DNA from: a virus
Lineage: Duplodnaviria > Caudoviricetes
Direction: 5' to 3' (one strand)
DNA: 64,000 nt
IMG/VR virus record: IMGVR_UViG_3300037851_000141
Location: 267,850-331,849 of that record
In this document: piece by piece, positions 24,166-38,166 of the stretch
How positions within the stretch are numbered: position 1 is the first letter of the stretch
Layout: each line of letters starts with the position of its first letter
Position numbers and translations under genes: made by a program
Notes under the pieces: generated by a model
Database searches by the model: none
What the model saw: the letters and a program-made list of their open reading frames with translations, nothing else
What the model was told of the DNA's origin: nothing

Positions 24166-24447
24166 TTATTCTTGTAAACTCTTTAATACAGACGGTTTAT
24201 TTACTGATCGTCTTACTAATATCCAAGATCCGTAATTATTTACTTTAACTGTATTTCGAGATATCAATTCTTTTATATTGTTTATTGCCGTTAAATGTAA
24301 ATAATGTAATGTATGCGGTGGTGACGGTTTTAGAAAACTGCGGGAGTCAATAAACATATCTTCAGTCACTAAATTTACAAATAATCCTAAGTTATATCTG
24401 ATGTTTCTATACGTCGTACCCCGTAACTGATTTATAGCAGATAACAT
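24166..24447 (-). CDS. VNK-tag family small protein
   Basis: ends SVNKPSVLKSLQE. Confidence 0.75.
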   Translation of the reverse strand: MLSAINQLRGTTYRNIRYNLGLFVNLVTEDMFIDSRSFLKPSPPHTLHYLHLTAINNIKELISRNTVKVNNYGSWILVRRSVNKPSVLKSLQE

Positions 24448-24659
24448 TATTTCAATCCTTTTAGCACAGCTTGTTTATTTACATTTTCTATTTTCCAACA
24501 AGGACCATTATTGCGGAATAAACCATTAAATGCTCTAATAACTGGAAAACCATCATTACCAACCAATGATAAAAAATCAATAATCGGTGAATAAACATAT
24601 TGAAAATCATGAACCTTAAAATATAATTCCGTTTTTTCATAAAAGTGCTTAAAACTCAT
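24447..24659 (-). CDS. VNK-tag family small protein
   Basis: ends NVNKQAVLKGLK. Confidence 0.75.
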   Translation of the reverse strand: MSFKHFYEKTELYFKVHDFQYVYSPIIDFLSLVGNDGFPVIRAFNGLFRNNGPCWKIENVNKQAVLKGLK

Positions 24660-24930
24660 TTGATGTTCCTGACAACGAGTTTAATACAGATTTCTTATTT
24701 ACTAATTGAAATTTGTTAGTTTTATGAAATATTTGTGGTGGTCGTAGTAAATTAAATAAAACCTCGTAAACCCGATATAATACTAAAATATGTCCCCTAT
24801 AAGAATCATTCAACCCAAAACTAACTCTCTCAATACGAATATCACAAAAAACACGTAAATCCTGAAAAACTTTAGGAGGTATGTTAATATTTTCAACCAC
24901 CAATCTTTTAGACTGCTTAATAATTATCAT
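24649..24930 (-). CDS. VNK-tag family small protein
   Basis: LVNKKSVLNSLS near the C-terminus. Confidence 0.75.
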   Translation of the reverse strand: MIIIKQSKRLVVENINIPPKVFQDLRVFCDIRIERVSFGLNDSYRGHILVLYRVYEVLFNLLRPPQIFHKTNKFQLVNKKSVLNSLSGTSNEF

Positions 24931-25207
24931 CTTGTAATCCTTTTAATACCGCAACTTTGTTTACTTTACTAATATCTACGCAAATAGATAATTTGGTCAA
25001 CCTTTCATCTTCAAGAGACATCATTATATTATTTTTTAGTCGAAATATTTCATTAATCTCTATATATGGTTCAGTCATATAAGAAAAGAAATAATACATT
25101 TTTAGACTTGTATTCGTAGCAGTTAACTTATATAAATCTAATACAGAAAGATAATGTAGTCCGATTTGAGCTAACTGATGTTGTGCTTGTTTTGTAAATT
25201 TAAGCAT
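24917..25207 (-). CDS. VNK-tag family small protein
   Basis: KVNKVAVLKGLQ near the C-terminus. Confidence 0.75.
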   Translation of the reverse strand: MLKFTKQAQHQLAQIGLHYLSVLDLYKLTATNTSLKMYYFFSYMTEPYIEINEIFRLKNNIMMSLEDERLTKLSICVDISKVNKVAVLKGLQDDNY

Positions 25208-25415
25208 TCAAAGACCTTATTTTGAGTTCTTTATTCAATTTATCAAGATGATCAGCAATTGTTATATAAGCAGTTCCAAGTTCTCTTATATCAACATCAG
25301 TCGCATATCCACCATCCAGGTAAACCATATGTTGATTATCCTTTGATGCTGGAAGATAATCATTAGATAGTCGAAGTTTAGCACCTATAAGATATAATGC
25401 TTCATCAATATTCAT
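25200..25415 (-). CDS. hypothetical protein
   Basis: ORF track; AAAGGA RBS. Confidence 0.55.
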   Translation of the reverse strand: MNIDEALYLIGAKLRLSNDYLPASKDNQHMVYLDGGYATDVDIRELGTAYITIADHLDKLNKELKIRSLNA

Positions 25416-25472
25416 AGTTTATCCCTTTACATCATCATAATCGAAAAATACCTAAAGTCAACTAAATTCTGC

Positions 25473-25537
25473 TAAAGTGCCTTATTTGACCTCTTATAGC
25501 CAGTTTAGAGAGTTAAAGTGCCTTATATGACCTCTTA
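25473..25537. repeat. two 24-bp direct repeats TAAAGTGCCTTATWTGACCTCTTA
   Basis: 25473-25496 and 25514-25537, one mismatch. Confidence 0.85.
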
Positions 25538-25682
25538 GGAAAACTCTTGAATTCCATTTTATCACTGTATACTGTAGCGCATGAAATGGAGATGATAAGT
25601 TTGATTCGGGTACCAGAGTCAATAAGATCATCACCATACAACGAACAACAGGCAAACCTACACTCCAAGAAAGGAGAACAAT

Positions 25683-26258
25683 ATGCCTATCTCATCCGTC
25701 CTAACCGCCGAACCCGTTGATGTCCTAAAGACTAAACGCAATCTCAATTCTCTTGAAGTTGAAATTCTTGGAAACCTCTACCTTGGTAATCCACAAAAGC
25801 CAAAGAATCGTGAAGGTGATGTTATTGTTGATGGTATGTGTGGCGAATATAAAAAGGTAGGATTGAATGGTCGAACTCTTGATACCAGCAATACCATCAA
25901 TCAAGTTCGAGCAATTAAATGTAATTTCTTGGTCATATACAGCACATATCATTGGTCATGGTTTGTTGTACCGGCTCACGTAGTTGTTCAGTTGGTAAAG
26001 GGTAAGCGCCGAGGTCAACATACCGAAATCCCTTATGAGTGTGCTACTCTTAGTCTGAAAGACGTTATAGATACGGAAGGTGTTATTGAAGTTGACAATA
26101 CCGATGCTGAAACCAAACTTCTTCCGGCAGTCCGAGCGGCTATCATCAGTAGTTCAGTGAAATCAAATAAGAAGTATATCGATTGCATGGAATTTCTATC
26201 AAAGAAAATCCAGTCTCTTAAAGAAGACTATGAGTTTATTATAGATAGTATTTTGTGA
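25683..26258 (+). CDS. putative PD-(D/E)xK endonuclease (restriction-enzyme-like)
   Basis: EGDVIVDGMCGEYK motif; directly upstream of a methyltransferase. Confidence 0.5.
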   Translation: MPISSVLTAEPVDVLKTKRNLNSLEVEILGNLYLGNPQKPKNREGDVIVDGMCGEYKKVGLNGRTLDTSNTINQVRAIKCNFLVIYSTYHWSWFVVPAHVVVQLVKGKRRGQHTEIPYECATLSLKDVIDTEGVIEVDNTDAETKLLPAVRAAIISSSVKSNKKYIDCMEFLSKKIQSLKEDYEFIIDSIL

Positions 26259-26309
26259 TGGCTTTCTGAAAATACTTTGATATAATATACATATAGATTA
26301 GGAGTTTAT

Positions 26310-27446
26310 ATGTATAAAGAAAATATCAAATCAGTAGATAGAAAAAGGAAACATGGGGAGGTTTTAACCCCATGTTTCCTCGTTAATGAAATGTTAGATA
26401 AAATACCAGAATCAGTTTGGAAAAACCCTAAACTAAAATGGATTGATAATAGTTGTGGAACAGGAAATTTTCTCATAGAAATAAAAAATCGTTTACTAAA
26501 ATACCATGCCGAACAACATATATTACAAAACATGATTTATGGTGTTGATATTCAAGAAGATAATATAAAAGAGACGAAGCAAAAACTTGGTGATACTAAT
26601 AACATTGTTTGTTTCAATAGTCTTACATTTGATTATTGGAATAACATGAAATTTGATGTTATCGTTGGAAATCCACCATATAACAATGATAAGGGAGATA
26701 AAAAAGGAAATACTTGTAATCCACTCTGGAATCTTTTTGTTGAACATGCCATAACCAAACTATTAAATGATAACGGTCTTTTGTTGTTTGTTCATCCTCC
26801 ACTTTGGCGTAAACCCGAACATAAGTTGTGGAAGCTAATGAAAAAATATCAACTTCATTTTCTAAAAATTTATAGCACAGAAGAATCATCTAAAATGTTT
26901 AATTGTTCAACAAAAGTAGATTATTATCTTTTACAGAAAAAAGACGCTTATAAAGACACTATCATTATTGACGAAAAAGGAATTAAATCTAAAATAACTG
27001 TACACGATAAACCATTTATACCAAATTTCTATATTGAAGAAGTGTATAATGTTTTCTCAGGTAAAACTGATGTTATATACGATTGTTCTTATCATCATTA
27101 TACACAGCAACATGTAAAATCTGAAAAAAATGAAGAATATAATCTACCGTGTATATATCTTGTAAACAAAAAGGGAATAAAATACTATTACTCAAATAAA
27201 AATATAGGACATTTCGGAATCCATAAAGTAATAATACCTATGGGAAGTTACATACCTATTTTAGATGAAACTGGTCAATACGGAATGTGCGAGGTTGCCT
27301 TTGCTATTCCTATAAAAGATAAAGAATATGGTGAAAGTCTTATGAAATTCCTAACATCTGATAATTTTAGAAGAATATTATCTGCCTGTAAATGGAAAAC
27401 GGTTCAATTAGATTATCGTCTGTTTAAATACTTAAATATACCTTAA
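26310..27446 (+). CDS. N6-adenine DNA methyltransferase (gamma class, Eco57I/TaqI-like)
   Basis: GEVLTP, WIDNSCGTGNF (motif I), DVIVGNPPY (motif IV). Confidence 0.9.
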   Translation: MYKENIKSVDRKRKHGEVLTPCFLVNEMLDKIPESVWKNPKLKWIDNSCGTGNFLIEIKNRLLKYHAEQHILQNMIYGVDIQEDNIKETKQKLGDTNNIVCFNSLTFDYWNNMKFDVIVGNPPYNNDKGDKKGNTCNPLWNLFVEHAITKLLNDNGLLLFVHPPLWRKPEHKLWKLMKKYQLHFLKIYSTEESSKMFNCSTKVDYYLLQKKDAYKDTIIIDEKGIKSKITVHDKPFIPNFYIEEVYNVFSGKTDVIYDCSYHHYTQQHVKSEKNEEYNLPCIYLVNKKGIKYYYSNKNIGHFGIHKVIIPMGSYIPILDETGQYGMCEVAFAIPIKDKEYGESLMKFLTSDNFRRILSACKWKTVQLDYRLFKYLNIP

Positions 27447-27505
27447 ATATTTTCTTGACTTCAAACCAATATTCTTTACAATGCTTCCATCTATAGGAGC
27501 AATAT

Positions 27506-27910
27506 ATGACTGATCTTCTACCTTGCCCTTTCTGTGGGTCTAAACGTGTTGAAGTCTTTTACGATTATGTTGAAAATAATGAAATAGGTTGTTTTAATAA
27601 TAACTGCGAATCTGCTTATGTACTTTGCCGAGAATGTGAGGCTAAAGGGCCATTAATCAAAATGTCTAATTCAAACCCACTACATAAACTAAGAATAATT
27701 GAAGCGTGGAATAACCGAAATAAACCTAAACCCAAATCCGAACCTGTATTAGATAAAAATGGTAAAATAGAAAACTTTATCATGTCATCCGGTGGCAAAC
27801 CCTTCCGTTGCTCTTGTGGTTGTAATGTCTTCCATAAACCAGATAATAAAAACTTAACCTTATATGAATGTAATTCCTGCCATACTGAATATATAGGCGA
27901 ACCAGAATGA
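27506..27910 (+). CDS. Lar-like restriction alleviation zinc protein
   Basis: LLPCPFCGS...CRECEAKGP...EAWNNR. Confidence 0.7.
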   Translation: MTDLLPCPFCGSKRVEVFYDYVENNEIGCFNNNCESAYVLCRECEAKGPLIKMSNSNPLHKLRIIEAWNNRNKPKPKSEPVLDKNGKIENFIMSSGGKPFRCSCGCNVFHKPDNKNLTLYECNSCHTEYIGEPE

Positions 27911-28143
27911 ATCCAAATATAATCCTACTAAATATCTCTGACGTTGATAAACCTAAAGATGGCGTATTCATGATACACATTGATCATTGGTGGATTGTAA
28001 AAGATAATCAAATCATGTTATATAGAGACTACGCACCACAATGTAATACTAATAAAGAAATCGCAACCAAAATTCGTGATAAGATATATCCAGATTGCGA
28101 AGTACGACAATTACCTGTTATCTACTTGGAATACCGTGATTAA
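27907..28143 (+). CDS. hypothetical protein
   Basis: ORF track; ATGA coupling. Confidence 0.55.
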   Translation: MNPNIILLNISDVDKPKDGVFMIHIDHWWIVKDNQIMLYRDYAPQCNTNKEIATKIRDKIYPDCEVRQLPVIYLEYRD

Positions 28144-28381
28144 CAAAAAATTCTCAGATGAAATCATTAACGTAAAACGCCGTATTGTTAATAAAATGAC
28201 TGTAGATGTACTTCAATGCGTCAGTACTAATGTAGCTCTATCAACCAGAATACATCATGTAAAAGCAACTGTTAAGGATTCATTTGGTTTTTACGATTTT
28301 TATGGAATTCGTACACCAGTGTATGATTACAAAAAAATCTCTAAAGTTAATAAACAATCTGTACTAAAGAGTCTAAAATGA
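28076..28381 (+). CDS. VNK-tag family small protein
   Basis: ends KVNKQSVLKSLK; true start probably downstream. Confidence 0.75.
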   Translation: MIRYIQIAKYDNYLLSTWNTVINKKFSDEIINVKRRIVNKMTVDVLQCVSTNVALSTRIHHVKATVKDSFGFYDFYGIRTPVYDYKKISKVNKQSVLKSLK

Positions 28382-28641
28382 TCAACTCTATATTCTCTGA
28401 CGACATTGTTCATATATCAAATCAAGCAAGAGAAAATGTCCTAAGTAAAATGAAGTTGGATGTATTTCATTATTTCAGTACTGACTTGTCTCTAATGACC
28501 AAAATCAATTTTATCAAATATACTATATCGGATTATTTGGGATTTTATGAGTTTTATACCGGAAGAATAAATGATGATATTTACAACAAATTCTCCAAAA
28601 TAGATAAACAATCGGTACTAAAGAGCCTAAAACATGAATAG
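28378..28641 (+). CDS. VNK-tag family small protein
   Basis: ends KIDKQSVLKSLKHE. Confidence 0.8.
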   Translation: MINSIFSDDIVHISNQARENVLSKMKLDVFHYFSTDLSLMTKINFIKYTISDYLGFYEFYTGRINDDIYNKFSKIDKQSVLKSLKHE

Positions 28642-28831
28642 CTTAAAAGAAAATGTTTCAAAATCTGTCAGTGAATCGATTAGTGACTCTGTTAGAAACC
28701 ACGTTTGGTCCTATATTTATTTTCCCGTTAGGTATTCTGTCATAATCCGAATTTCGTACGGTATTGATGATTATGTTGAATTACAATATTCTAAAGTAAA
28801 TAAAGCCTCTGTTCTAAAGAGCCTTAAATGA
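28634..28831 (+). CDS. VNK-tag family small protein (SV-repeat subtype)
   Basis: ends KVNKASVLKSLK. Confidence 0.8.
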   Translation: MNSLKENVSKSVSESISDSVRNHVWSYIYFPVRYSVIIRISYGIDDYVELQYSKVNKASVLKSLK

Positions 28832-29043
28832 AATTGAAATCCTTGAAAGATCCATTAAAGAACTCTGTTAAGCACTCTATTGAGAAATCTGTTAGCCACT
28901 ATGTTAGGTCTACTATTTGGACCGTTATTTATTTCTCTGTTATGTATTCTGGTATAGATCATGCTTGGCTATTTGTTTGTAACTCTGTTAAATCTCAAAA
29001 ACATAAAGTAAACAAATCCTCTGTTCTAAAGAGCCTTAAATGA
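28828..29043 (+). CDS. VNK-tag family small protein (SV-repeat subtype)
   Basis: ends KVNKSSVLKSLK. Confidence 0.8.
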   Translation: MKLKSLKDPLKNSVKHSIEKSVSHYVRSTIWTVIYFSVMYSGIDHAWLFVCNSVKSQKHKVNKSSVLKSLK

Positions 29044-29300
29044 GATCCAAAACCTATCATTGGCCGTCCAGAAGAAGACATTGGCGCATCATACACATAT
29101 ATAAACCTCTAAAATCAAAAGCATTCCATATAATCAAAAATAAAATTTGGGTTTACGGCCCCTATACCCAAGCTAAACATAATATCAAACCAAAGGTAGA
29201 ATCACACCTTATACGTATGAACAGAACAATCAGAACATGTATATATCAATTCCGAAAACAAGTTAATAAATCGATAGTTCTAAAAGGTCTACAAGAATGA
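29040..29300 (+). CDS. VNK-tag family small protein
   Basis: ends QVNKSIVLKGLQE. Confidence 0.8.
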   Translation: MRSKTYHWPSRRRHWRIIHIYKPLKSKAFHIIKNKIWVYGPYTQAKHNIKPKVESHLIRMNRTIRTCIYQFRKQVNKSIVLKGLQE

Positions 29301-29500
29301 AGTTAAAAATAAGAGAACACGTAAAAGAAAAAATCAGCACCATAACTGACTTGTATATCGATAACTCTCTACGCTATGTTGTGGTTGATAATGTCTGCTC
29401 TAATATATATTTTTATTGGGATAATTATGGGTTCTTACTTAAATATATTAATATGACATCCATAAATAAATCAGCAGTTCTAAAAGGTCTACAAGAATGA
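29297..29500 (+). CDS. VNK-tag family small protein
   Basis: ends SINKSAVLKGLQE. Confidence 0.8.
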   Translation: MKLKIREHVKEKISTITDLYIDNSLRYVVVDNVCSNIYFYWDNYGFLLKYINMTSINKSAVLKGLQE

Positions 29501-29742
29501 ATATAATGCCAACACACCTTTTAGATGATTTTGTTGATGTTGATATTAGATTTATCATATTTACAGAGATATATACTAAAGTCAGAAATAATATAACTCA
29601 TAGGATAAAATCAAGAATCGATGGTGAAATGTATACAATCACAGTATTCATACAAACTGAAACTGTTGAAGCATTATCAGGAAGACTTCATCACAACCTC
29701 AAACTAAACAAATCTTCCATTTTAGCGAGTTTACAAAAATGA
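29497..29742 (+). CDS. VNK-tag family small protein
   Basis: ends KLNKSSILASLQK. Confidence 0.8.
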   Translation: MNIMPTHLLDDFVDVDIRFIIFTEIYTKVRNNITHRIKSRIDGEMYTITVFIQTETVEALSGRLHHNLKLNKSSILASLQK

Positions 29743-30017
29743 ACTTTGATCTTAAAATAGACCGTAAAATCATTTTCTTCGGTATAAAACATAAACTTAA
29801 TCCTCTTGAAACTTACTATAGAACTTTATTTGATACTAAAATACAAGATAACTACCAAGACATCGCAATAGATATAATAAACAACTTGACTGAAGAAATC
29901 CAAATCCAAACCACCAGACGTAGATTCATGTCTCACGGATTTATCCAAGAGTGTTGCCAAGAAAACCAAAATAAAGTCAATAAACAATCTGTACTAAGAA
30001 GCCTAAAACATGAATAA
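29739..30017 (+). CDS. VNK-tag family small protein
   Basis: ends KVNKQSVLRSLKHE. Confidence 0.8.
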   Translation: MNFDLKIDRKIIFFGIKHKLNPLETYYRTLFDTKIQDNYQDIAIDIINNLTEEIQIQTTRRRFMSHGFIQECCQENQNKVNKQSVLRSLKHE

Positions 30018-30225
30018 CCTAAAATCAAATACGGCAAAATCTGTTAGTGAAAACGTTAGAAAATCTATTAGTGACTCAATTTATGACAATGTTAAAAAAT
30101 TTATCTATATTCCAGTATATTACTCTACGCCATTCACTATATTTTACCATAATAAAAAATCTATTAATTACAATATAAACAAACTCAATAAATCATCTGT
30201 CTTAAGAAGCCTTCAATCCATTTAA
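30010..30225 (+). CDS. VNK-tag family small protein (SV-repeat subtype)
   Basis: ends KLNKSSVLRSLQSI. Confidence 0.8.
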   Translation: MNNLKSNTAKSVSENVRKSISDSIYDNVKKFIYIPVYYSTPFTIFYHNKKSINYNINKLNKSSVLRSLQSI

Positions 30226-30480
30226 TACATCTGCCGTTACTTTATCACGTATCTTATAAAATTCTAAATAAAGATTCATAGAATAGTTCATCTCAAATCT
30301 TATTGCTTCTCTTAACATAAACTCTTTCTTATCAATTACCTTAAAATAATAATCATTTACTTCTTTACAAATACATTTTCTTACATTATCCTTAACCTTA
30401 TTTCTTACAATCATAGCAACATCACTATGATTGAACCCCTGTATAATATCCTCAGCAGACCAACGATCAACTAAAGGCAT
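30202..30480 (-). CDS. divergent VNK-tag family protein
   Basis: ends DKVTADVLNGLKAS (partial match). Confidence 0.55.
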   Translation of the reverse strand: MPLVDRWSAEDIIQGFNHSDVAMIVRNKVKDNVRKCICKEVNDYYFKVIDKKEFMLREAIRFEMNYSMNLYLEFYKIRDKVTADVLNGLKAS

Positions 30481-30557
30481 ACTCCAGTCCTTATCCTCTT
30501 ATTTTACCATCTTCCCTAAAATGTCAAGAAAAATCCACTTGCTATCAACTAATCACT

Positions 30558-30854
30558 TTGTATAATAACAGCCTAAAGGATTTTATTATGGAACACGAAA
30601 ATAAAAAAGAAAAGATAGTATTTTATCCGCGTGATATCGGTATGTGGCGTAGACGTTTTACTTTCACAGCAGATCATAATACTAAAAAAGAATTCAATAG
30701 TAAAACAGAATTCCTTGATTTCTTAAAAGAGAATGGAGTTCGATTAGACGATCCAAAATTCCCGCTTCAATTTAAGAAGACTGATAATCCAAAATATGGT
30801 TCTGTAGAGGCTATAATACAATCGACAACTATCGGCTGGATTAAAAAATATTAA
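30558..30854 (+). CDS. hypothetical protein
   Basis: ORF track; likely start MEHENK after TTGCTA-N16-TATAAT. Confidence 0.6.
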   Translation: MYNNSLKDFIMEHENKKEKIVFYPRDIGMWRRRFTFTADHNTKKEFNSKTEFLDFLKENGVRLDDPKFPLQFKKTDNPKYGSVEAIIQSTTIGWIKKY

Positions 30855-31084
30855 TACATTACAATGAAAATTCAACTCCAGTTCACACAATGGATAAACA
30901 CAAGACCACAATTCTTACCATTCATCATCCATAAAACAAATAAAATAAACCAAAAATCATGCGCCAAAGTAATACTATCAGTTTCTTATCCTAGTCAACG
31001 TCTTAATGAATCAATTAAATCAGCTTTCTCACAGCAATAACAAAATATCACAATTCTATCAACACAAAAACTATACTTGATATA

Positions 31085-31318
31085 CTAAAAACCCCTTAAA
31101 CCACTTAATACAGCTTCTTTATTAACATTCCTATAGCCATTCTTAAATGCTTCAGGTAATATAAAATAAATAGAATGTAAATATGTATTCCTTCCGTTCC
31201 GTCTTATATAACTTTCAACACCCTTCCAAACACATAACTCAACTGAATTGGCAATATCATTATCAACAATAGTCTTAGACCCGAAATATAACAATATCTT
31301 TAGAATCAAATATATCAT
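31085..31318 (-). CDS. VNK-tag family small protein
   Basis: ends NVNKEAVLSGLRGF. Confidence 0.75.
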   Translation of the reverse strand: MIYLILKILLYFGSKTIVDNDIANSVELCVWKGVESYIRRNGRNTYLHSIYFILPEAFKNGYRNVNKEAVLSGLRGF

Positions 31319-31321
31319 TAT

Positions 31322-31513
31322 TCATCCTCTTAATCCCCTTAATACCGCATCCTTGTTCACTTCCTTAATCTTATTCGGACCTTCTAATATATAACTCATA
31401 ATAGGATCACGATATGCCTTTAGACACATATCTACATCAACAATATCTAAAAAAGAATCATATACCCTAATACACATATCCTTAAAATATAACCTCTTAC
31501 TCATAATCACCAT
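31322..31513 (-). CDS. VNK-tag family small protein
   Basis: ends EVNKDAVLRGLRG. Confidence 0.75.
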   Translation of the reverse strand: MVIMSKRLYFKDMCIRVYDSFLDIVDVDMCLKAYRDPIMSYILEGPNKIKEVNKDAVLRGLRG

Positions 31514-31639
31514 CTTATCATCTACTTCATTTATGTCAAGATCCTTTATCCACTTAAAAACTTCATCCTACACCGTTTACCTTATATTTTCTGAATGGCT
31601 TATACTACTTACCCTAAATACCTTAAATAAAAATATCCA

Positions 31640-31890
31640 CTTGAAACTACTTGAAACTAATCAAAACCTCGTCAAAAATAAAAAAACCTACTTGAAACTA
31701 ATCAAAAATAAATCTCTTATATTAAAACTAATCAAAACCTCGTCAAAAATAAAAACCTATATAAAAAATAGGGTGTATCTTAGTCGCAGTTCGAACACAC
31801 GGCCGGAATTTTCATTTTCCCCAGGAATTTAACCAAGTCAAGCAATTTTTACAATTTTGGCCCGGTTTTTTAGTTTTCCCAGGAATTTAG
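31640..31890. repeat. AT-rich iteron-like repeats at a G/C-skew switch (candidate replication origin)
   Basis: AAACTAATCAAAA x3, AAACTAATCAAAACCTCGTCAAAAATAAAA x2, TTTTCCC(C)AGGAATTTA x2. Confidence 0.5.
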
Positions 31891-32002
31891 TTATTTTTTA
31901 TTCAATTGCTCAAAAAATAATCAAAAAAGAAAATATTTGACTTTTTTAAGAAGGATTTATAATGAGGATAGAGAAAAGAGAGTAGATAAGATGATTAAGG
32001 AA

Positions 32003-32176
32003 ATGAATAACCTTAAGATCAAAGCTAGCGTTTATATTAGTGTCTTGAATAGTGTTGGATATAGTGTCAGGAATAGTGTTGGATATAGTGTCAGGAATAG
32101 TGTTGGATATAGTGTCAGGAATAAACAGTATAAAGTTAACAAGGGTGCTGTATTGAGGGGGTTGAGGGATGAGTGA
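32003..32176 (+). CDS. VNK-tag family small protein with (NSVGYSVR)x3
   Basis: start moved to MNNLK (AAGGAA RBS); ends KVNKGAVLRGLRDE. Confidence 0.75.
   Translation: MNNLKIKASVYISVLNSVGYSVRNSVGYSVRNSVGYSVRNKQYKVNKGAVLRGLRDE
32047..32123 (+). repeat. 24-bp in-frame tandem repeat x3.2
   Basis: GAATAGTGTTGGATATAGTGTCAG, exact copies. Confidence 0.95.
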
Positions 32177-32420
32177 ATATGTTTATTGGTCTAATTTGAT
32201 GAATGCCTGGAACGATGTTAAGAAATTTATTAGGGAATCTGTTAAGAAATCTGTTATATACTCTGTTAAGAAATCTATTGATGTATATATTATGGAAGCT
32301 GTTGATGTGAAGGTTTGTTGGCCTGTTGATGGATCTGAAATTAAAGTTATTAGGGAATCTATTAAGGAGAGATATAAGGAAGTTAACAAAAAGAGTGTAA
32401 TAGCGAGTTTAAGAGATTGA
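32169..32420 (+). CDS. VNK-tag family small protein (SV-repeat subtype)
   Basis: ends EVNKKSVIASLRD. Confidence 0.75.
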   Translation: MSEYVYWSNLMNAWNDVKKFIRESVKKSVIYSVKKSIDVYIMEAVDVKVCWPVDGSEIKVIRESIKERYKEVNKKSVIASLRD

Positions 32421-32491
32421 GTTGTTTGTAGGGTAATTGGGTTAAAAAATTGAGTATAAAAAATTAGCGAGTTGGATTAGCGAGTTGTGTT

Positions 32492-32797
32492 TTATGATTT
32501 TAGTGAGTTTAGGATAGATTTATGATTTAAGTATTTAAGGTTATAGGATTGATGTAGGGAGGTTTGTGTATTAGATATATAGGTTGATTGGATTAAAGAT
32601 TCGCCGTCAGTATCATATATCAAAAACTCTAATTTTACATAATAGTTGTTTTTAGTATTTAGGTGTTTAAAAGATTCGTAAGATATGAGGGTAAAGCCTA
32701 TTTGATTGAAGAAATCTACAAGAGTTATTTCTGGTGGTTTATACATGGTTGATTTAAGGTTATTTGGGTATATGAATAGAGGATTTGGTTTATTCAT
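32492..32797 (-). CDS. VNK-tag family small protein
   Basis: ends YLNHKSILNSLKS. Confidence 0.7.
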   Translation of the reverse strand: MNKPNPLFIYPNNLKSTMYKPPEITLVDFFNQIGFTLISYESFKHLNTKNNYYVKLEFLIYDTDGESLIQSTYISNTQTSLHQSYNLKYLNHKSILNSLKS

Positions 32798-33022
32798 AGT
32801 AGTTATAGTTTTTTATATTGGTAGGGGGTTTGTGGGGAAAAGTATTTGACATTTAGATTTTTTATATAGTTGAGGGTGGATTTGTGGTCTATTATGAAAA
32901 GGGTGGGAGTCAATTGAAAAGATTTAGATTCCTTATTACCTACTATGAAAAGGGTTGTTGTCAAGGGGTAAAATCTTTAGAATGTGAGGGTTTAATATTA
33001 GGATAATGATTTGGTATAGGTT

Positions 33023-33259
33023 TTATGGAATATTTGTTGTAGTTGAAGAAAAAGAGGATAGGATGGATTGTTTATTTATTTTGATTAATTTTTTGTATGC
33101 GATATTTTGGATTATATTAAATAGAGTTGTATTATGATCGTCGGCAAGGGTGGCGTTTGAGAATAGGAATAAATTAAAATGTGGTATTTGGTTTATGAGG
33201 TTGAAGTAATTTTTTCTTAAGTTGTATCCTAATAATGGGTTATGATGGAAGTTATTCAT
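33023..33259 (-). CDS. VNK-tag family small protein
   Basis: KINKQSILSSF near the C-terminus. Confidence 0.7.
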   Translation of the reverse strand: MNNFHHNPLLGYNLRKNYFNLINQIPHFNLFLFSNATLADDHNTTLFNIIQNIAYKKLIKINKQSILSSFSSTTTNIP

Positions 33260-33465
33260 TTGAGACTCTTTAGGACAGATTGTTTATTTAGTTTATAGAA
33301 GCATGGGTATTGATTAAGGTGGTCAAAATTATCAATAACGGCAACAATAGCAAACCAAATGAAGTTTATACATGGTGCTGCTGATCTATCAATACGTTGA
33401 ATAGCACCAGATTTTTCAGCAGAGTACCTAACAGAACCCTTAATATTTGTTTTTAAGTTATTCAT
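33256..33465 (-). CDS. VNK-tag family small protein
   Basis: MNNLK start; ends KLNKQSVLKSLK. Confidence 0.8.
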   Translation of the reverse strand: MNNLKTNIKGSVRYSAEKSGAIQRIDRSAAPCINFIWFAIVAVIDNFDHLNQYPCFYKLNKQSVLKSLK

Positions 33466-33725
33466 AGGAAGAAGTTATCATTATCATTTGCTTGGTCTGG
33501 AGCATCGTCAATGTTATAGTTATTTCCTTCTTCTGTATTTGATGGACCTATTTGAGTGACGTTGAAACCTTGGTCTTTGAGCCAATTAGTGAAATTAGTT
33601 GGATCTACGTGACCAGTTGAATCTGTATTTAGTTCTAAGTCTTTTTGTTTTAGGGATTTAGGTACGAGTGATTCATTAATAGAACCATCGTCATTGAAGG
33701 GGTTGACCCAGGTTTCGTTATTCAT
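33462..33725 (-). CDS. acidic hypothetical protein
   Basis: ORF track; ATG 7 nt after TACAAT. Confidence 0.6.
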   Translation of the reverse strand: MNNETWVNPFNDDGSINESLVPKSLKQKDLELNTDSTGHVDPTNFTNWLKDQGFNVTQIGPSNTEEGNNYNIDDAPDQANDNDNFFL

Positions 33726-33810
33726 GGTGTCTATTGTACCTTATATTTTGGGGGAGTCAAGAGACAAAATGTGATATAGGATAGGGTGAAAGGTAGGGGT
33801 TTAGGGTATT

Positions 33811-34098
33811 TTAGTGGACAGATTGTGATATTTGTAAGCTTTTTAGTACAGCTTGTTTATTTATTTTATGTTGTTTAATATTTTCCATAAAAGGTGATAT
33901 AAAGAATAATTTGGATTCTAAACATAGTGTATCTAACTTATGAGAAAGGTTATACTCTACAAACAAATATAAACTATCTAATAATTCATATCGTTCTAAT
34001 CTAATGTAAGTATTTGGAATATTGAAACAATTTAAGATTCTATATTGAAAGGACTTATAGATTTGTTTTGGTATATACAATCTAATCCTTCCAGTCAA
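33811..34098 (-). CDS. VNK-tag family small protein
   Basis: KINKQAVLKSLQ near the C-terminus. Confidence 0.7.
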   Translation of the reverse strand: MTGRIRLYIPKQIYKSFQYRILNCFNIPNTYIRLERYELLDSLYLFVEYNLSHKLDTLCLESKLFFISPFMENIKQHKINKQAVLKSLQISQSVH

Positions 34099-35293
34099 AT
34101 TTTTGGTAGTTTAGACAGATCCACTTATTGAAACGTTCGGGATCATTGTTCTTTAGGATATCGTCTTTATATTGGAAGAAGTAAGACCAGAAGATTTTGG
34201 GTGCATGCTTTTGAACAGCCATAGCATAATCTTTTTGAGTTGAAGGCTGAAGTTCCCGTAGAGTTGCTTCCGCTTGTTGAGATTGAGTTAGAAGATTAGC
34301 GACTTTGGTTTCGAGAGATTTAGCGAATTCCTTCATAGTGTCAACGAGAACAGGAAAGATATCATCAAGAGTATGGTTGAAGAAAGAATCAATAACAACA
34401 TTACGAGTATGCTTGATATCACCCCCACCTACTGAATGGAGAGATACATAGCGGTTTGATTTGATTTTCGCAATTGGCTTATTACCTTGATAGACAACAA
34501 ACCCTTCAGAGTATTCAACACCATCTTGCTCAATGGCTTCAATACCTTTAGTGTTAACCCAATAGCGAAGATCATCAAGAGTGATAATATCCAGTTCATA
34601 AAGCATCTTCTTCCAAGGTAGACGAAGATTAGATGCTCCATTTGAAAGAAGATTAATTACTATATCATCAAGAGGATCAACATAAGTCCCGTATTCATTA
34701 TGCCTTACAGCGAGAAGCACCACTTGATTTTGAGGATACTTGGTGACAATACGGTTTTCATTACAAGCAAGTTCAAAGATATAGGTATAGTTAGTATCCA
34801 GAAAATTAGCGAGTTGAGTGTTTGAGAGTCCAATAGTCTTGAAGAATAACTCAGAGAATGAAAACTTATAATCCCCGACATTACCAGTAGGGATTGAACC
34901 AAGAGTAGAAGCTTGCCAGTTGTTGGTGATAGGATTATGATAAAGGATAATACAAGACCCATCAACCTTTTCATAAATAGCGAGTTGATTTTTGATAAGA
35001 TTGAAATCAGCTTCATTGAATATAGGACAGAACCCCTCATGCTGATTAAAGAACTTATTGAAAGGACGAGCAACATATTTCCAACCAGATTGAGACTGAT
35101 AGAGAATAGCTCCCCGACATTCAGCAGTCAAGGGTCGAACGAATTTAGCCTGTAGTTGATCATACTTGAATTGATATAACCCATTGTGAGTATTGACATT
35201 TACGCCGAATTCAGTAATAAACTTTTCCTTTATCTCATCCAGAGTAAAGGCTGAGTTGAAATACTTGTTGAGATATTCTTGAAGTTGAGACAT
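34082..35293 (-). CDS. rnlA: RNA ligase, T4 Rnl1 family
   Basis: ECRGAIL, RPFNKFFN, EKVDGS (motif I), YIFEL, EGFVV, KIKSNRY. Confidence 0.88.
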   Translation of the reverse strand: MSQLQEYLNKYFNSAFTLDEIKEKFITEFGVNVNTHNGLYQFKYDQLQAKFVRPLTAECRGAILYQSQSGWKYVARPFNKFFNQHEGFCPIFNEADFNLIKNQLAIYEKVDGSCIILYHNPITNNWQASTLGSIPTGNVGDYKFSFSELFFKTIGLSNTQLANFLDTNYTYIFELACNENRIVTKYPQNQVVLLAVRHNEYGTYVDPLDDIVINLLSNGASNLRLPWKKMLYELDIITLDDLRYWVNTKGIEAIEQDGVEYSEGFVVYQGNKPIAKIKSNRYVSLHSVGGGDIKHTRNVVIDSFFNHTLDDIFPVLVDTMKEFAKSLETKVANLLTQSQQAEATLRELQPSTQKDYAMAVQKHAPKIFWSYFFQYKDDILKNNDPERFNKWICLNYQKFDWKD

Positions 35294-36881: not shown

Positions 36882-37163
36882 ATGATCAAATTTCATAGTA
36901 AGTGCGAAGGCAATCGATGCTACTTCTGCGGAATTAGTAAAGATAGAAATGTAAAAGGTAAGGGAAGAAGCCTAGTGGAATTTCATCATATTATCGAAAA
37001 GAATATGGGTGGTGGAAATGAAGACTCCAACCTTGTTCCTGTTTGTTCTAATTGCCATTCCCTAATCCATGAAGGGCATATTAGAATAGATAAATGGTAC
37101 TTTTCTACTAAAGGCTGGGTCTTACATTATTGGCAAGATGAAAAGGAATATTGGGGTTCTTAA
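36882..37163 (+). CDS. HNH endonuclease
   Basis: CYFCG...EFHHI...NLVPVCSNCHSLIH. Confidence 0.85.
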   Translation: MIKFHSKCEGNRCYFCGISKDRNVKGKGRSLVEFHHIIEKNMGGGNEDSNLVPVCSNCHSLIHEGHIRIDKWYFSTKGWVLHYWQDEKEYWGS

Positions 37164-38166
37164 GTCAATTCCCAAAAACCAGAGAGAATAGTATTTTTAT
37201 CTACCTGACCACTATTCAAGAAGAAGTCCAAAGTTTGTTGAATTTGCTGATTGACTTCATAATTCCAATCAATGTTCTTAAAGAAGACTTGGGATTTAAG
37301 ATCACCACTCACCCAAGTAATCATATTGGCATCAGGGTCAGCACAGTAGTTAAATGGCACCCTAATCTTTTGGCCATCAACAACTAAAGAAACCCCCGAC
37401 ATCACCATTGTATAAGTTTGGACGTTCATATCAATGTCCGAAAAGGATACAATGGGTTGCTCTCTTACCGTGCTTCTTTCCAGTTTCCGACATCATCTTG
37501 AGCATCTTATAAGCCCAGGAATACCTAACATAATCTGATTTGATCTTGGGTTTGAGGGCATCAATAACACGTTGAATAGGAATTGCCATCAACTTATCAC
37601 CATACTTATCTTCCTCAATACAAGTGTCACCATCAGAGGCGAAAATGAAAGCGGGTGTACAGTTAGAAACATCAAAACTCAAACAACCCCCACAAAGATC
37701 CAGCCGGGCCATTTCTTGAAACCAAAAAGAGTCAGTCTTACCTTTTTCAGTAAAACCTTTTTGGCTTGTAATCTGACCAATATGTAGCCGAATCTCATAG
37801 CCCATGATTGAGTCTCCTTGTGTGTTTGATTATAAGGCTTGTTTTAGAGTGTCAAGCCTCAGTCGGTTCCTCGTCATTGGCTTCCCTAAACGCTTCCTCA
37901 ACCTGTCTCTCCAACGTATCAACATAGTCAAAGAAGGTATCAGACTGGAAAGGATAGGTAAACGTCTCACTAAACTCCGCATCCGAACCCTCAACAATAG
38001 AACCAATAGAAAAACCATTGTCATCAAACTCAATCCAAGCTCCACATTCAGTTTCACCATAAATCATCTGACCCATTTCCTTACGAGCATCACAATCAAA
38101 AGCATCAAGAAACTCAGTCTCGCTGCTAATCATGCGGTTGTCAAAGTAGTTGAGGTCACGAAGCAT
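37160..38166 (-). other. three hypothetical CDSs (37160-37429, 37431-37805, 37852-38166)
   Basis: ORF track; promoter cassettes and AAGGAG RBSs. Confidence 0.6.

Follow-up and report, generated by a model that had tools for sequence, protein, structure and literature searches.

The stretch analyzed here, called the window below, comprises the final 64 kb (positions 267,850 to 331,849) of the 331,849-bp IMG/VR virus record IMGVR_UViG_3300037851_000141, a 332-kb freshwater jumbo phage with 35% G+C and a CheckV completeness of 92%. Between window positions 24166 and 34098, it contains an island of small genes on both strands, whose products consist of a variable body followed by one short C-terminal motif, which we call the tag. 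The tagged genes and the promoters associated with them are listed by window position; L009 and L011 are, together with L012, contigs of close relatives (Logan contigs of run SRR33452761), and A, B and C denote subfamilies of bodies.

24166-24447, minus strand: tagged gene ending ..VNKPSVLKSLQE, the last of its operon
24447-24659, minus strand: tagged gene ending ..VNKQAVLKGLK
24649-24930, minus strand: tagged gene ending ..VNKKSVLNSLSGTSNEF
24917-25207, minus strand: tagged gene ending ..VNKVAVLKGLQDDNY
25434-25461, minus strand: early-type promoter TTGACT-N16-TATGAT, ahead of operon 25415-24166
27455-27482, plus strand: early-type promoter ahead of the Lar gene (27506-27910), a gene for a 78-residue protein, and ten tagged genes (to 30225)
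28136-28381, plus strand: tagged gene ending ..VNKQSVLKSLK, subfamily B; start uncertain (GTG 28076, 28136 or ATG 28196)
28378-28641, plus strand: tagged gene ending ..IDKQSVLKSLKHE, subfamily B
28634-28831, plus strand: tagged gene ending ..VNKASVLKSLK, subfamily C; the member modeled with AlphaFold2
28828-29043, plus strand: tagged gene ending ..VNKSSVLKSLK, subfamily C
29040-29300, plus strand: tagged gene ending ..VNKSIVLKGLQE, with a very basic body (isoelectric point, pI, 11.2)
29297-29500, plus strand: tagged gene ending ..INKSAVLKGLQE
29497-29742, plus strand: tagged gene ending ..LNKSSILASLQK; ortholog in L009
29739-30017, plus strand: tagged gene ending ..VNKQSVLRSLKHE; ortholog in L009
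30010-30225, plus strand: tagged gene ending ..LNKSSVLRSLQSI, subfamily C; missing from L009 (crossover within tags)
30202-30480, minus strand: candidate degenerate member ending ..KVTADVLNGLKAS, with its own early promoter at 30527-30501
31085-31318, minus strand: tagged gene ending ..VNKEAVLSGLRGF
31322-31513, minus strand: tagged gene ending ..VNKDAVLRGLRG; promoter-like site at 31539-31512
31937-31963, plus strand: early-type promoter TTGACT-N15-TATAAT, 93% conserved in L011
31991-32176, plus strand: tagged gene ending ..VNKGAVLRGLRDE, with a body of SVGYSVRN repeats; ortholog in L011
32169-32420, plus strand: tagged gene ending ..VNKKSVIASLRD; its L011 counterpart keeps the tag, with a body that has no DNA match
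32492-32797, minus strand: tagged gene ending ..LNHKSILNSLKS; in L011 the tag is identical and the body differs (nonsynonymous divergence, dN, 0.52)
33023-33259, minus strand: tagged gene ending ..INKQSILSSFSSTTTNIP
33256-33465, minus strand: tagged gene ending ..LNKQSVLKSLK, subfamily C
33733-33760, minus strand: early-type promoter ahead of the gene for an untagged acidic 87-residue protein (33462-33725) and two tagged genes
33811-34098, minus strand: tagged gene ending ..INKQAVLKSLQISQSVH; start uncertain; directly downstream of the RNA ligase 1 gene

The strict form of the tag is an 11-residue pattern, [VIL][NDT][KH]x[SAPIV][VI][LI]x[SG][LF][KQRS]. It matched 21 times in the window, in every case within 24166-34098 and 0-7 residues ahead of a stop codon, in frames that are open for 54-115 residues before the motif. 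The whole genome contains 23 strict matches, compared with 0, 0, 0, 1 and 0 in five mononucleotide shuffles. When a family hidden Markov model (HMM) built from the final 33 residues was run on all 4731 stop-to-stop open reading frames of the genome, 28 members were recovered at E ≤ 8.5e-6 (24-46 bits, all C-terminal), and the next match had an E of 0.34. These members form six clusters, with 21 members in the stretch and seven located 6-21 kb upstream of the window. The degenerate candidate at 30202-30480 was missed by the HMM. An earlier reading of the same DNA, made from the sequence only, had counted about 22 proteins that share a tag close to their C-terminus, and this agrees well with the 21 clear members plus one degenerate candidate that we found. 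The motif lies 0-7 residues from the C-terminus in 28/28 members, and the N-termini are not conserved across the family. As in the small-protein families of jumbo phages, the members are many diverged small paralogs, arranged in tandem arrays, restricted to one lineage, and encoded in an early, non-structural part of the genome. Positions 5 and 9 of the tag, which are one helix turn apart, co-vary (S/S 20, A/G 10, H/V 4 and five mixed, of 37); this may reflect the fit to a partner or simply tag lineages. Outside the island, an acidic protein of 89 residues (37160-37429, minus strand), not scored by the HMM, has a tag-like end, ..VDKNTILSGFWELT, kept as ..LDKNTILYGFWELT in the relative L018; it may be distantly related to the family or resemble it by chance.

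The constancy of the tag is selected at the protein level. Across 378 paralog pairs, the synonymous sites of the tag are saturated (proportion of synonymous differences, pS, 0.72), whereas its replacement sites are held (proportion of nonsynonymous differences, pN, 0.30). The 11 codons upstream of the tag are just as saturated (pS 0.67), but their pN is 0.63. In 34 tags, most of the information resides at codon positions 1 and 2 and far less at position 3, and codons of both the TCN and the AGY type are used for Ser, with AGY prevailing at tag position 9 where the stop follows closely. Moreover, the dN of the tag is 0 in three of six ortholog pairs, and that of the bodies ranges from 0.02 to 0.93. 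That the tagged genes are translated is supported by the whole-gene ratio of nonsynonymous to synonymous divergence (dN/dS), which is 0.14, 0.35 (29497-29742) and 0.39 (29739-30017) for the three ortholog pairs with the Logan contigs that could be aligned. 

At the DNA level, the tag has a second, subordinate role. Codons 7-9 (L-K-[S/G]) give a purine run, AAAGAG, AAAAGG, AAGGA or GAGGG, which in most of the 14 gene junctions that we tabulated lies, as read by eye, about 7-11 nt ahead of the next start. This Shine-Dalgarno-like run for the overlapping next gene is a real by-product of the tag codons. It is not the main cause of their conservation, because seven operon-final tags (at convergent gene ends or before a new promoter), which have no coupled downstream gene, retain the motif. 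Thus, the statements of the sequence-only reading that synonymous codons of the tag differ freely, that the tag is conserved as protein and is not a DNA repeat, and that its DNA supplies the ribosome-binding site of the next gene were all borne out. Its description of the genes as chained mostly by ATGA overlaps was accurate for half of the junctions: exact 4-nt overlaps of this kind occur in 7 of the 14, and the others overlap by 1-14 nt or are separated by a 3-nt gap.

In contrast to the tag, the bodies are diverse. The members have 61-101 residues, or 155 in one relative, with bodies of about 45 to 140 residues. The pI is 8-11 in 24/28 members and the aromatic content is 7-19%, as expected from the sequence-only description of the bodies as basic and rich in aromatic residues. 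No transmembrane-like segment was found in the 28 members. Besides singletons, the bodies form subfamilies A (four to five upstream members), B (two) and C (six or more), the last of which has an N-terminal periodic helix of the type xSVxxSVx. An alignment of profiles of the two largest subfamilies, A and C, with hhalign gave a probability of 0.1%, and the tag appears to ride on bodies that are not detectably related. The earlier claim that there is little similarity outside the tag therefore holds between A and C, but not without qualification, as A, B and C are each internally similar and a weak helix pattern extends upstream of the tag. This pattern consists of hydrophobic residues at -19, -15, -11, -7 and -3, with Lys at -1 in 62%, and is predicted to form a weak, weakly conserved amphipathic helix ahead of the tag. 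No family match was obtained for ten members in Pfam and PHROGs (no helix-turn-helix family at E ≤ 1 in Pfam), and a PDB sequence search with the family profile returned nothing below E 3, in line with the earlier statement that no described family fits.

An AlphaFold2 prediction with the family alignment for the member at 28634-28831 gave a long helix, a break at V55-N56, and a short helix at residues 57-64 (KASVLKSL). According to the general rules of helix capping, the segment V-N-K-x-[S/A]-V would be a helix start signal, in which Asn is the N-cap and Ser at N3 completes a capping box, and in which Val N' (V1 of the tag) and Val N4 (V6) could form a hydrophobic staple. The face of the tag helix would then be made of V/I6, L7 and L10, flanked by Lys or Arg. 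A helix-turn-helix identity was considered and rejected. An ESM Atlas lead to a helix-turn-helix of the Tc1/IS630 type scored 0.84-0.88, below the bar of 0.9, for one member, and two others failed to reproduce it; the hydrophobic residues ahead of the tag are not spaced as in the canonical 20-residue form of this fold.

Matches to a host-type early promoter consensus, TTGAC[TA]-N15-17-TAnn[AT]T, number 70 in the window and 119 in the whole genome, mostly in its last 90 kb, and most of them are followed by a Shine-Dalgarno run of the AAGGAG type and an ATG. In many places, most densely at 36-64 kb, these elements form a regular recurring unit, TTGAC[TA]-N15-16-TATAAT, about 7 nt, then CATAAGGAG..ATG, often with one unit per small gene. 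The tagged island is organized instead into long overlapping operons, and its G+C content is lower (29-32% vs 40-47%). Early-type sites lie ahead of each tagged cluster, at 25461 (minus), 27455 (plus), 30527 (minus), 31539 (minus), 31937 (plus) and 33760 (minus), and no T4-type late promoter box, TATAAATA, was found in 24-34 kb. The tagged genes are thus predicted to be transcribed early by host RNA polymerase. A search of 23.5-35.5 kb for terminator-like hairpins gave a single one, and shuffled sequences contained more.

The comparison with the close relatives revealed five structural differences, and in each case an end point falls within a tag or at its edge. In L009, a gene for a tagged protein of 155 residues, with its own divergent promoters, is inserted directly after the tag of the 29497-29742 ortholog. 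Further on, the L009 ortholog of 29739-30017 matches the window as far as ..CTAAGAAGCCT and then becomes the 3' end of the next gene's tag, and that next gene (30010-30225 in the window) is missing; such a switch in mid-tag together with the loss of one gene indicates a crossover inside the tags. Moreover, the L009 gene in the place of the convergent minus-strand gene 30202-30480 has a different body and the same GLKAS end. In L011, a promoter and leader 93% identical to those of the window are followed by a body without a DNA match, then by tag DNA that is 97.6% identical, and only then by the true ortholog of 31991-32176; clearly, an extra body-and-tag cassette lies ahead of this ortholog. 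The third gene of L011 likewise has the tag and a body without a DNA match. In general, where a body has been replaced at the same position in these relatives, the body DNA has no match and the tag DNA is 82-98% identical, which fits a portable module better than slow drift. The tag DNA is a homology patch at which cassettes recombine, and cassettes of body and tag are inserted, deleted and swapped.

The family has a narrow range. Profile searches of 5.8 billion clusters and 1.84 billion representatives (about 15 billion proteins) returned no members beyond those of this genome and of contigs from runs SRR33452761 and ERR14790927. The stretch itself was found in one DNA run only, a freshwater metagenome that is its probable source. 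A DNA search of cultured phages gave no match to the island, and tblastn with one member protein against them gave nothing; the neighboring RNA ligase is at most about 30% identical to any protein of a cultured phage. In a phage with a 49%-identical RNA ligase, no tags were seen within 15 kb. A scan of IMG/VR with the neighboring RNA ligase returned nothing related, and a degenerate pattern of the tag DNA gave three matches there, all internal and due to chance. Three matches to a 12-residue tag pattern in JGI metagenome contigs were also judged to be chance, since two are internal to a longer frame and one is in a contig without coherent genes.

Taken together, these results point to a diversifying family of early proteins, probably directed at the host or against its defences, that carry a portable interaction helix at the C-terminus. 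We favor this reading tentatively and with somewhat less than even confidence. Each protein would combine a fast-changing body with one constant C-terminal module, made of the weakly conserved amphipathic helix, a sharp turn and the short basic helix. The final helix would be a common interaction handle, bringing proteins that act early, in host takeover or against defences, to one shared partner. The sequence-only reading had proposed a similar family of variable effectors addressed by a constant helix; protein-level constancy on unrelated bodies and the absence of a family match speak for it, and the option of packaging or injection that it included is the part that is disfavored. Several points weigh against the interaction helix. 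The docking on a common partner is itself something that we infer, and a helix of 8-10 residues that offers three hydrophobic side chains would make a small interface. The AlphaFold2 model (predicted local distance difference test, pLDDT, 92; predicted template modeling score, pTM, 0.49) is essentially one long helix, so that the fold is little informed by it. The early promoters were assigned by consensus matches only, and the co-variation of tag positions 5 and 9 would also fit a set of different partners or simply the common ancestry of tag types. In addition, adjacent tags are more alike in DNA (72% vs 60% identity), and gene conversion or recent duplication thus adds to the apparent constancy.

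The likeness of neighboring tags is also what would be expected if the tag had no address function at all and the family simply descended from one small protein, whose C-terminal hairpin was an unchangeable part of the fold or a self-association interface while the rest drifted. The tandem arrays, the clear similarity within the body subfamilies, and the weak helix pattern reaching 20 residues upstream of the tag would all agree with such a conserved core. We nevertheless consider it unlikely, if worth serious attention, because lengths range from about 60 to 155 residues, the bodies of different subfamilies lack profile similarity, and bodies have been replaced without any DNA match in close relatives whose tag DNA is 82-98% identical. 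A constraint acting on DNA or RNA, with the peptide as a by-product of a translation-initiation region or a recombination site, is hardly tenable: even though the purine run precedes the next start in most junctions, cassette junctions lie in tags, and a -35 box lies within tag codons in two phages (see below), it is largely refuted by the codon data, that is, by saturated pS with restrained pN and by Ser changing its codon family, and by the motif of the seven uncoupled operon-final tags. It is highly improbable, too, that the tag is a capsid-targeting or injection signal. The analogy is with the internal proteins of T4, a diverse set of small, basic proteins that act against restriction and have only a short capsid-targeting sequence in common (PMC3012670); host-type early promoters before every cluster, with no TATAAATA nearby, argue against virion packaging, and the tag is C-terminal, with no cleavage motif of the prohead-protease type seen.

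A C-terminal position, early expression signals and a motif common to all members would also suit a degradation or timing signal, by which a host or phage protease clears the early proteins together later in infection. C-terminal degrons are established for ClpXP and FtsH substrates. Such known degrons need a fixed free end, whereas 0-7 varied residues follow the motif here, and the motif would encode a well-capped helix and not a floppy tail and does not resemble ssrA-type ends; we regard a degron as improbable. Still less probable is a weak membrane-targeting amphipathic helix, comparable to the C-terminal helices of MinD or FtsA. The tag would indeed be a short basic amphipathic helix at the extreme C-terminus (mean net charge +2.3), but its mean hydrophobic moment of 0.36 and mean hydrophobicity of 0.19 are low for lipid-binding helices, its hydrophobic residues are only Val and Leu, and the near-invariant Asn-Lys would be left unexplained. 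Two further candidates were dropped. For a tail that binds the sliding clamp, the aromatic or Gln residues of known clamp peptides are absent from the motif, and stalling of the nascent peptide at the stop codon was considered unlikely, as tails of 0-7 residues do not keep a fixed distance to the active site of the ribosome.

Outside the window, in an upstream cluster, an early operon with five tagged genes also contains a gene for a protein of 220 residues (genome 259848-260510; L010:15848-16510, plus strand) that matches Pfam Peptidase_C39_2 with 26.3 bits (cut-off 24; E 1.3e-5) and nearly reaches the cut-off of Peptidase_C39. It is the sole such gene in the genome. Its Gln-x5-Cys and His motifs are kept in a 62%-identical homolog in a second phage, L016 (L016:9819-10466), and both phages have the same operon order: promoter, tagged gene, peptidase, tagged gene or genes, and next promoter. 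The -35 box of that next promoter lies within the L-D-S-L-K codons of the last tag (L010:17462-17489; L016:10788-10815), Asp replacing the usual Lys in both phages. C39 peptidases recognize a constant leader helix on hypervariable small precursors in bacteriocin processing, which makes it a specific and testable proposal that the tag is a recognition element for the C39-like cysteine peptidase of the phage, which would bind the helix and then cut or mature the tagged proteins. This seems rather doubtful to us. Neither Gly-Gly nor another conserved cleavage site is found beside the tag, the tag is C-terminal and not an N-terminal leader, and the peptidase is a free-standing protein without an ATP-binding cassette (ABC) transporter, its neighbors being small tagged genes. 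Moreover, the peptidase gene is found in one tagged cluster out of six, and its association with the tag may reflect no more than synteny; the AlphaFold2 model of the peptidase has a pLDDT of 32, and a PDB sequence search and PHROGs returned nothing for it. In a bolder form of the interaction-helix reading, the 11-residue helix would be a true portable address read by one dedicated reader, either this peptidase or a host hub, and new bodies would be plugged into one early pathway (activation, delivery, localization or timed removal) by recombination at the tag DNA. This is attractive, but in our judgment unlikely.

The neighbors of the tagged island are auxiliary genes typical of large T4-like phages. 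They include the following:

26310-27446: orphan N6 methylase of the Eco57I type, just upstream of the Lar gene
27506-27910, plus strand: Lar restriction-alleviation (anti-restriction) protein, at the head of the ten-gene tagged operon
34082-35293, minus strand: RNA ligase 1
Rnl2-type ligase, a neighbor of the tagged stretch
MnmA-like tRNA enzyme, a neighbor of the tagged stretch

Since Lar shares its promoter with the ten-gene plus-strand array, the neighborhood of the tagged genes is one of anti-restriction. Directly upstream of the methylase gene, between tagged clusters, lies a gene for a protein of 191 residues without a family match (the two genes together span 25683-27446); the methylase may be an orphan that has a partner, or the two may form a small pair resembling restriction-modification. 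A 24-nt direct repeat, TAAAGTGCCTTAT[T/A]TGACCTCTTA, occurs twice, 41 nt apart (25473-25537), in the region from which promoters diverge toward the tagged operon on the minus strand and toward the 25683 gene; it could be an operator. The 420-nt gap between the divergent tagged operons contains, at 31625-31890, iteron-like direct repeats of 34-36-nt units with TTGAAACTAATCAAAA and a second repeat pair, GGCC.GG..TTT..TTTTCCC.AGGAATTTA. The G/C skew changes from -0.37 at 30-32 kb to +0.50 at 32-34 kb. The untagged 87-residue protein encoded at 33462-33725 is very acidic and ends in ..DNDNFFL, which recalls the acidic tails of single-strand-binding proteins; a tail of this kind, ..EDLPF, is also found at the end of the protein encoded at L010:22-540. 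In the early region outside the window, an apparent nicotinamide adenine dinucleotide (NAD) salvage set (L010:10462-14877; genome ~254.5-258.9 kb) comprises isochorismatase/nicotinamidase-like, Nudix-like, large NAD synthetase-like and NAMPT-like genes, as judged by inspection of the sequence and by Pfam marks in relatives, in which NADAR and RlaP genes lie near it. This set may help the phage to counter defences that deplete NAD.

Orphan early genes of obscure logic occupy large parts of jumbo-phage genomes, and here 28 such genes share one selected terminal segment, probably a helix. If this helix is a common handle, a pull-down with the tag peptide could reveal a hub used by a whole phage arsenal, and the tag could be attached to foreign proteins to direct them along this route. 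It would also show how phages can continue to swap gene cassettes where intergenic linkers are absent. A portable address with a dedicated reader would correspond, at the C-terminus and in the early phase, to the capsid-targeting sequence of T4, and it would be joined to a cassette system that resembles integrons and has a coding linker. If the tag were only the conserved core of drifting paralogs, the family would be one more lineage-specific expansion, of modest interest.

The turnover of the tagged genes resembles that of PeSL cassettes, in which orphan early genes are gained, lost or swapped between close relatives by recombination at short conserved linkers, in regions dense in strong promoters of the sigma-70 type (PMC2839356, PMC4122927). 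PeSL-mediated shuffling occurs in the hyperplastic regions of T4-type phages (PMC2839356). PeSLs are intergenic and consist of a promoter and a stem-loop, whereas the tag is a coding motif at the 3' end of genes, most of which overlap; an intergenic promoter with a GC-rich stem-loop for each gene is not found in the island, and the end points fall in a conserved linker by analogy, with the tag as the linker. The T4 internal proteins (IPI, IPII, IPIII and their polymorphic relatives) are likewise small, basic and highly diverse and share only a constant address of about 10 residues, and their bodies are regarded as tools of counter-defence (PMC3012670). In T4, the address lies at the N-terminus, is cut by the prohead protease after (L/I)-x-E, and serves capsid packaging in proteins expressed late with the head genes, whereas the motif described here is C-terminal, occurs in 28 copies behind early host-type promoters (as consensus matches), and has no evident cleavage site. 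Double-glycine leader loci, that is, C39 loci for bacteriocins or ribosomally synthesized and post-translationally modified peptides, also combine tandem small genes, a constant helical segment with a hypervariable rest, and a C39-family peptidase in the operon. Here, in contrast, the constant segment is C-terminal and lacks Gly-Gly, the peptidase is free-standing and carries no fused ABC exporter, and the proteins would act within an infected cell. Finally, the ankyrin-repeat proteins of poxviruses are a viral multigene family with variable bodies and one constant C-terminal module, the PRANC or F-box-like module, which docks onto a host hub. They show no likeness in sequence or size to the tagged proteins, their module is far larger, and they belong to eukaryotic ubiquitin-ligase biology. 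Compared with these systems, what is new here is that unrelated bodies carry so short a modular tag, that this tag is used as a joint for recombination, and that it has a conserved link to a C39-like peptidase.

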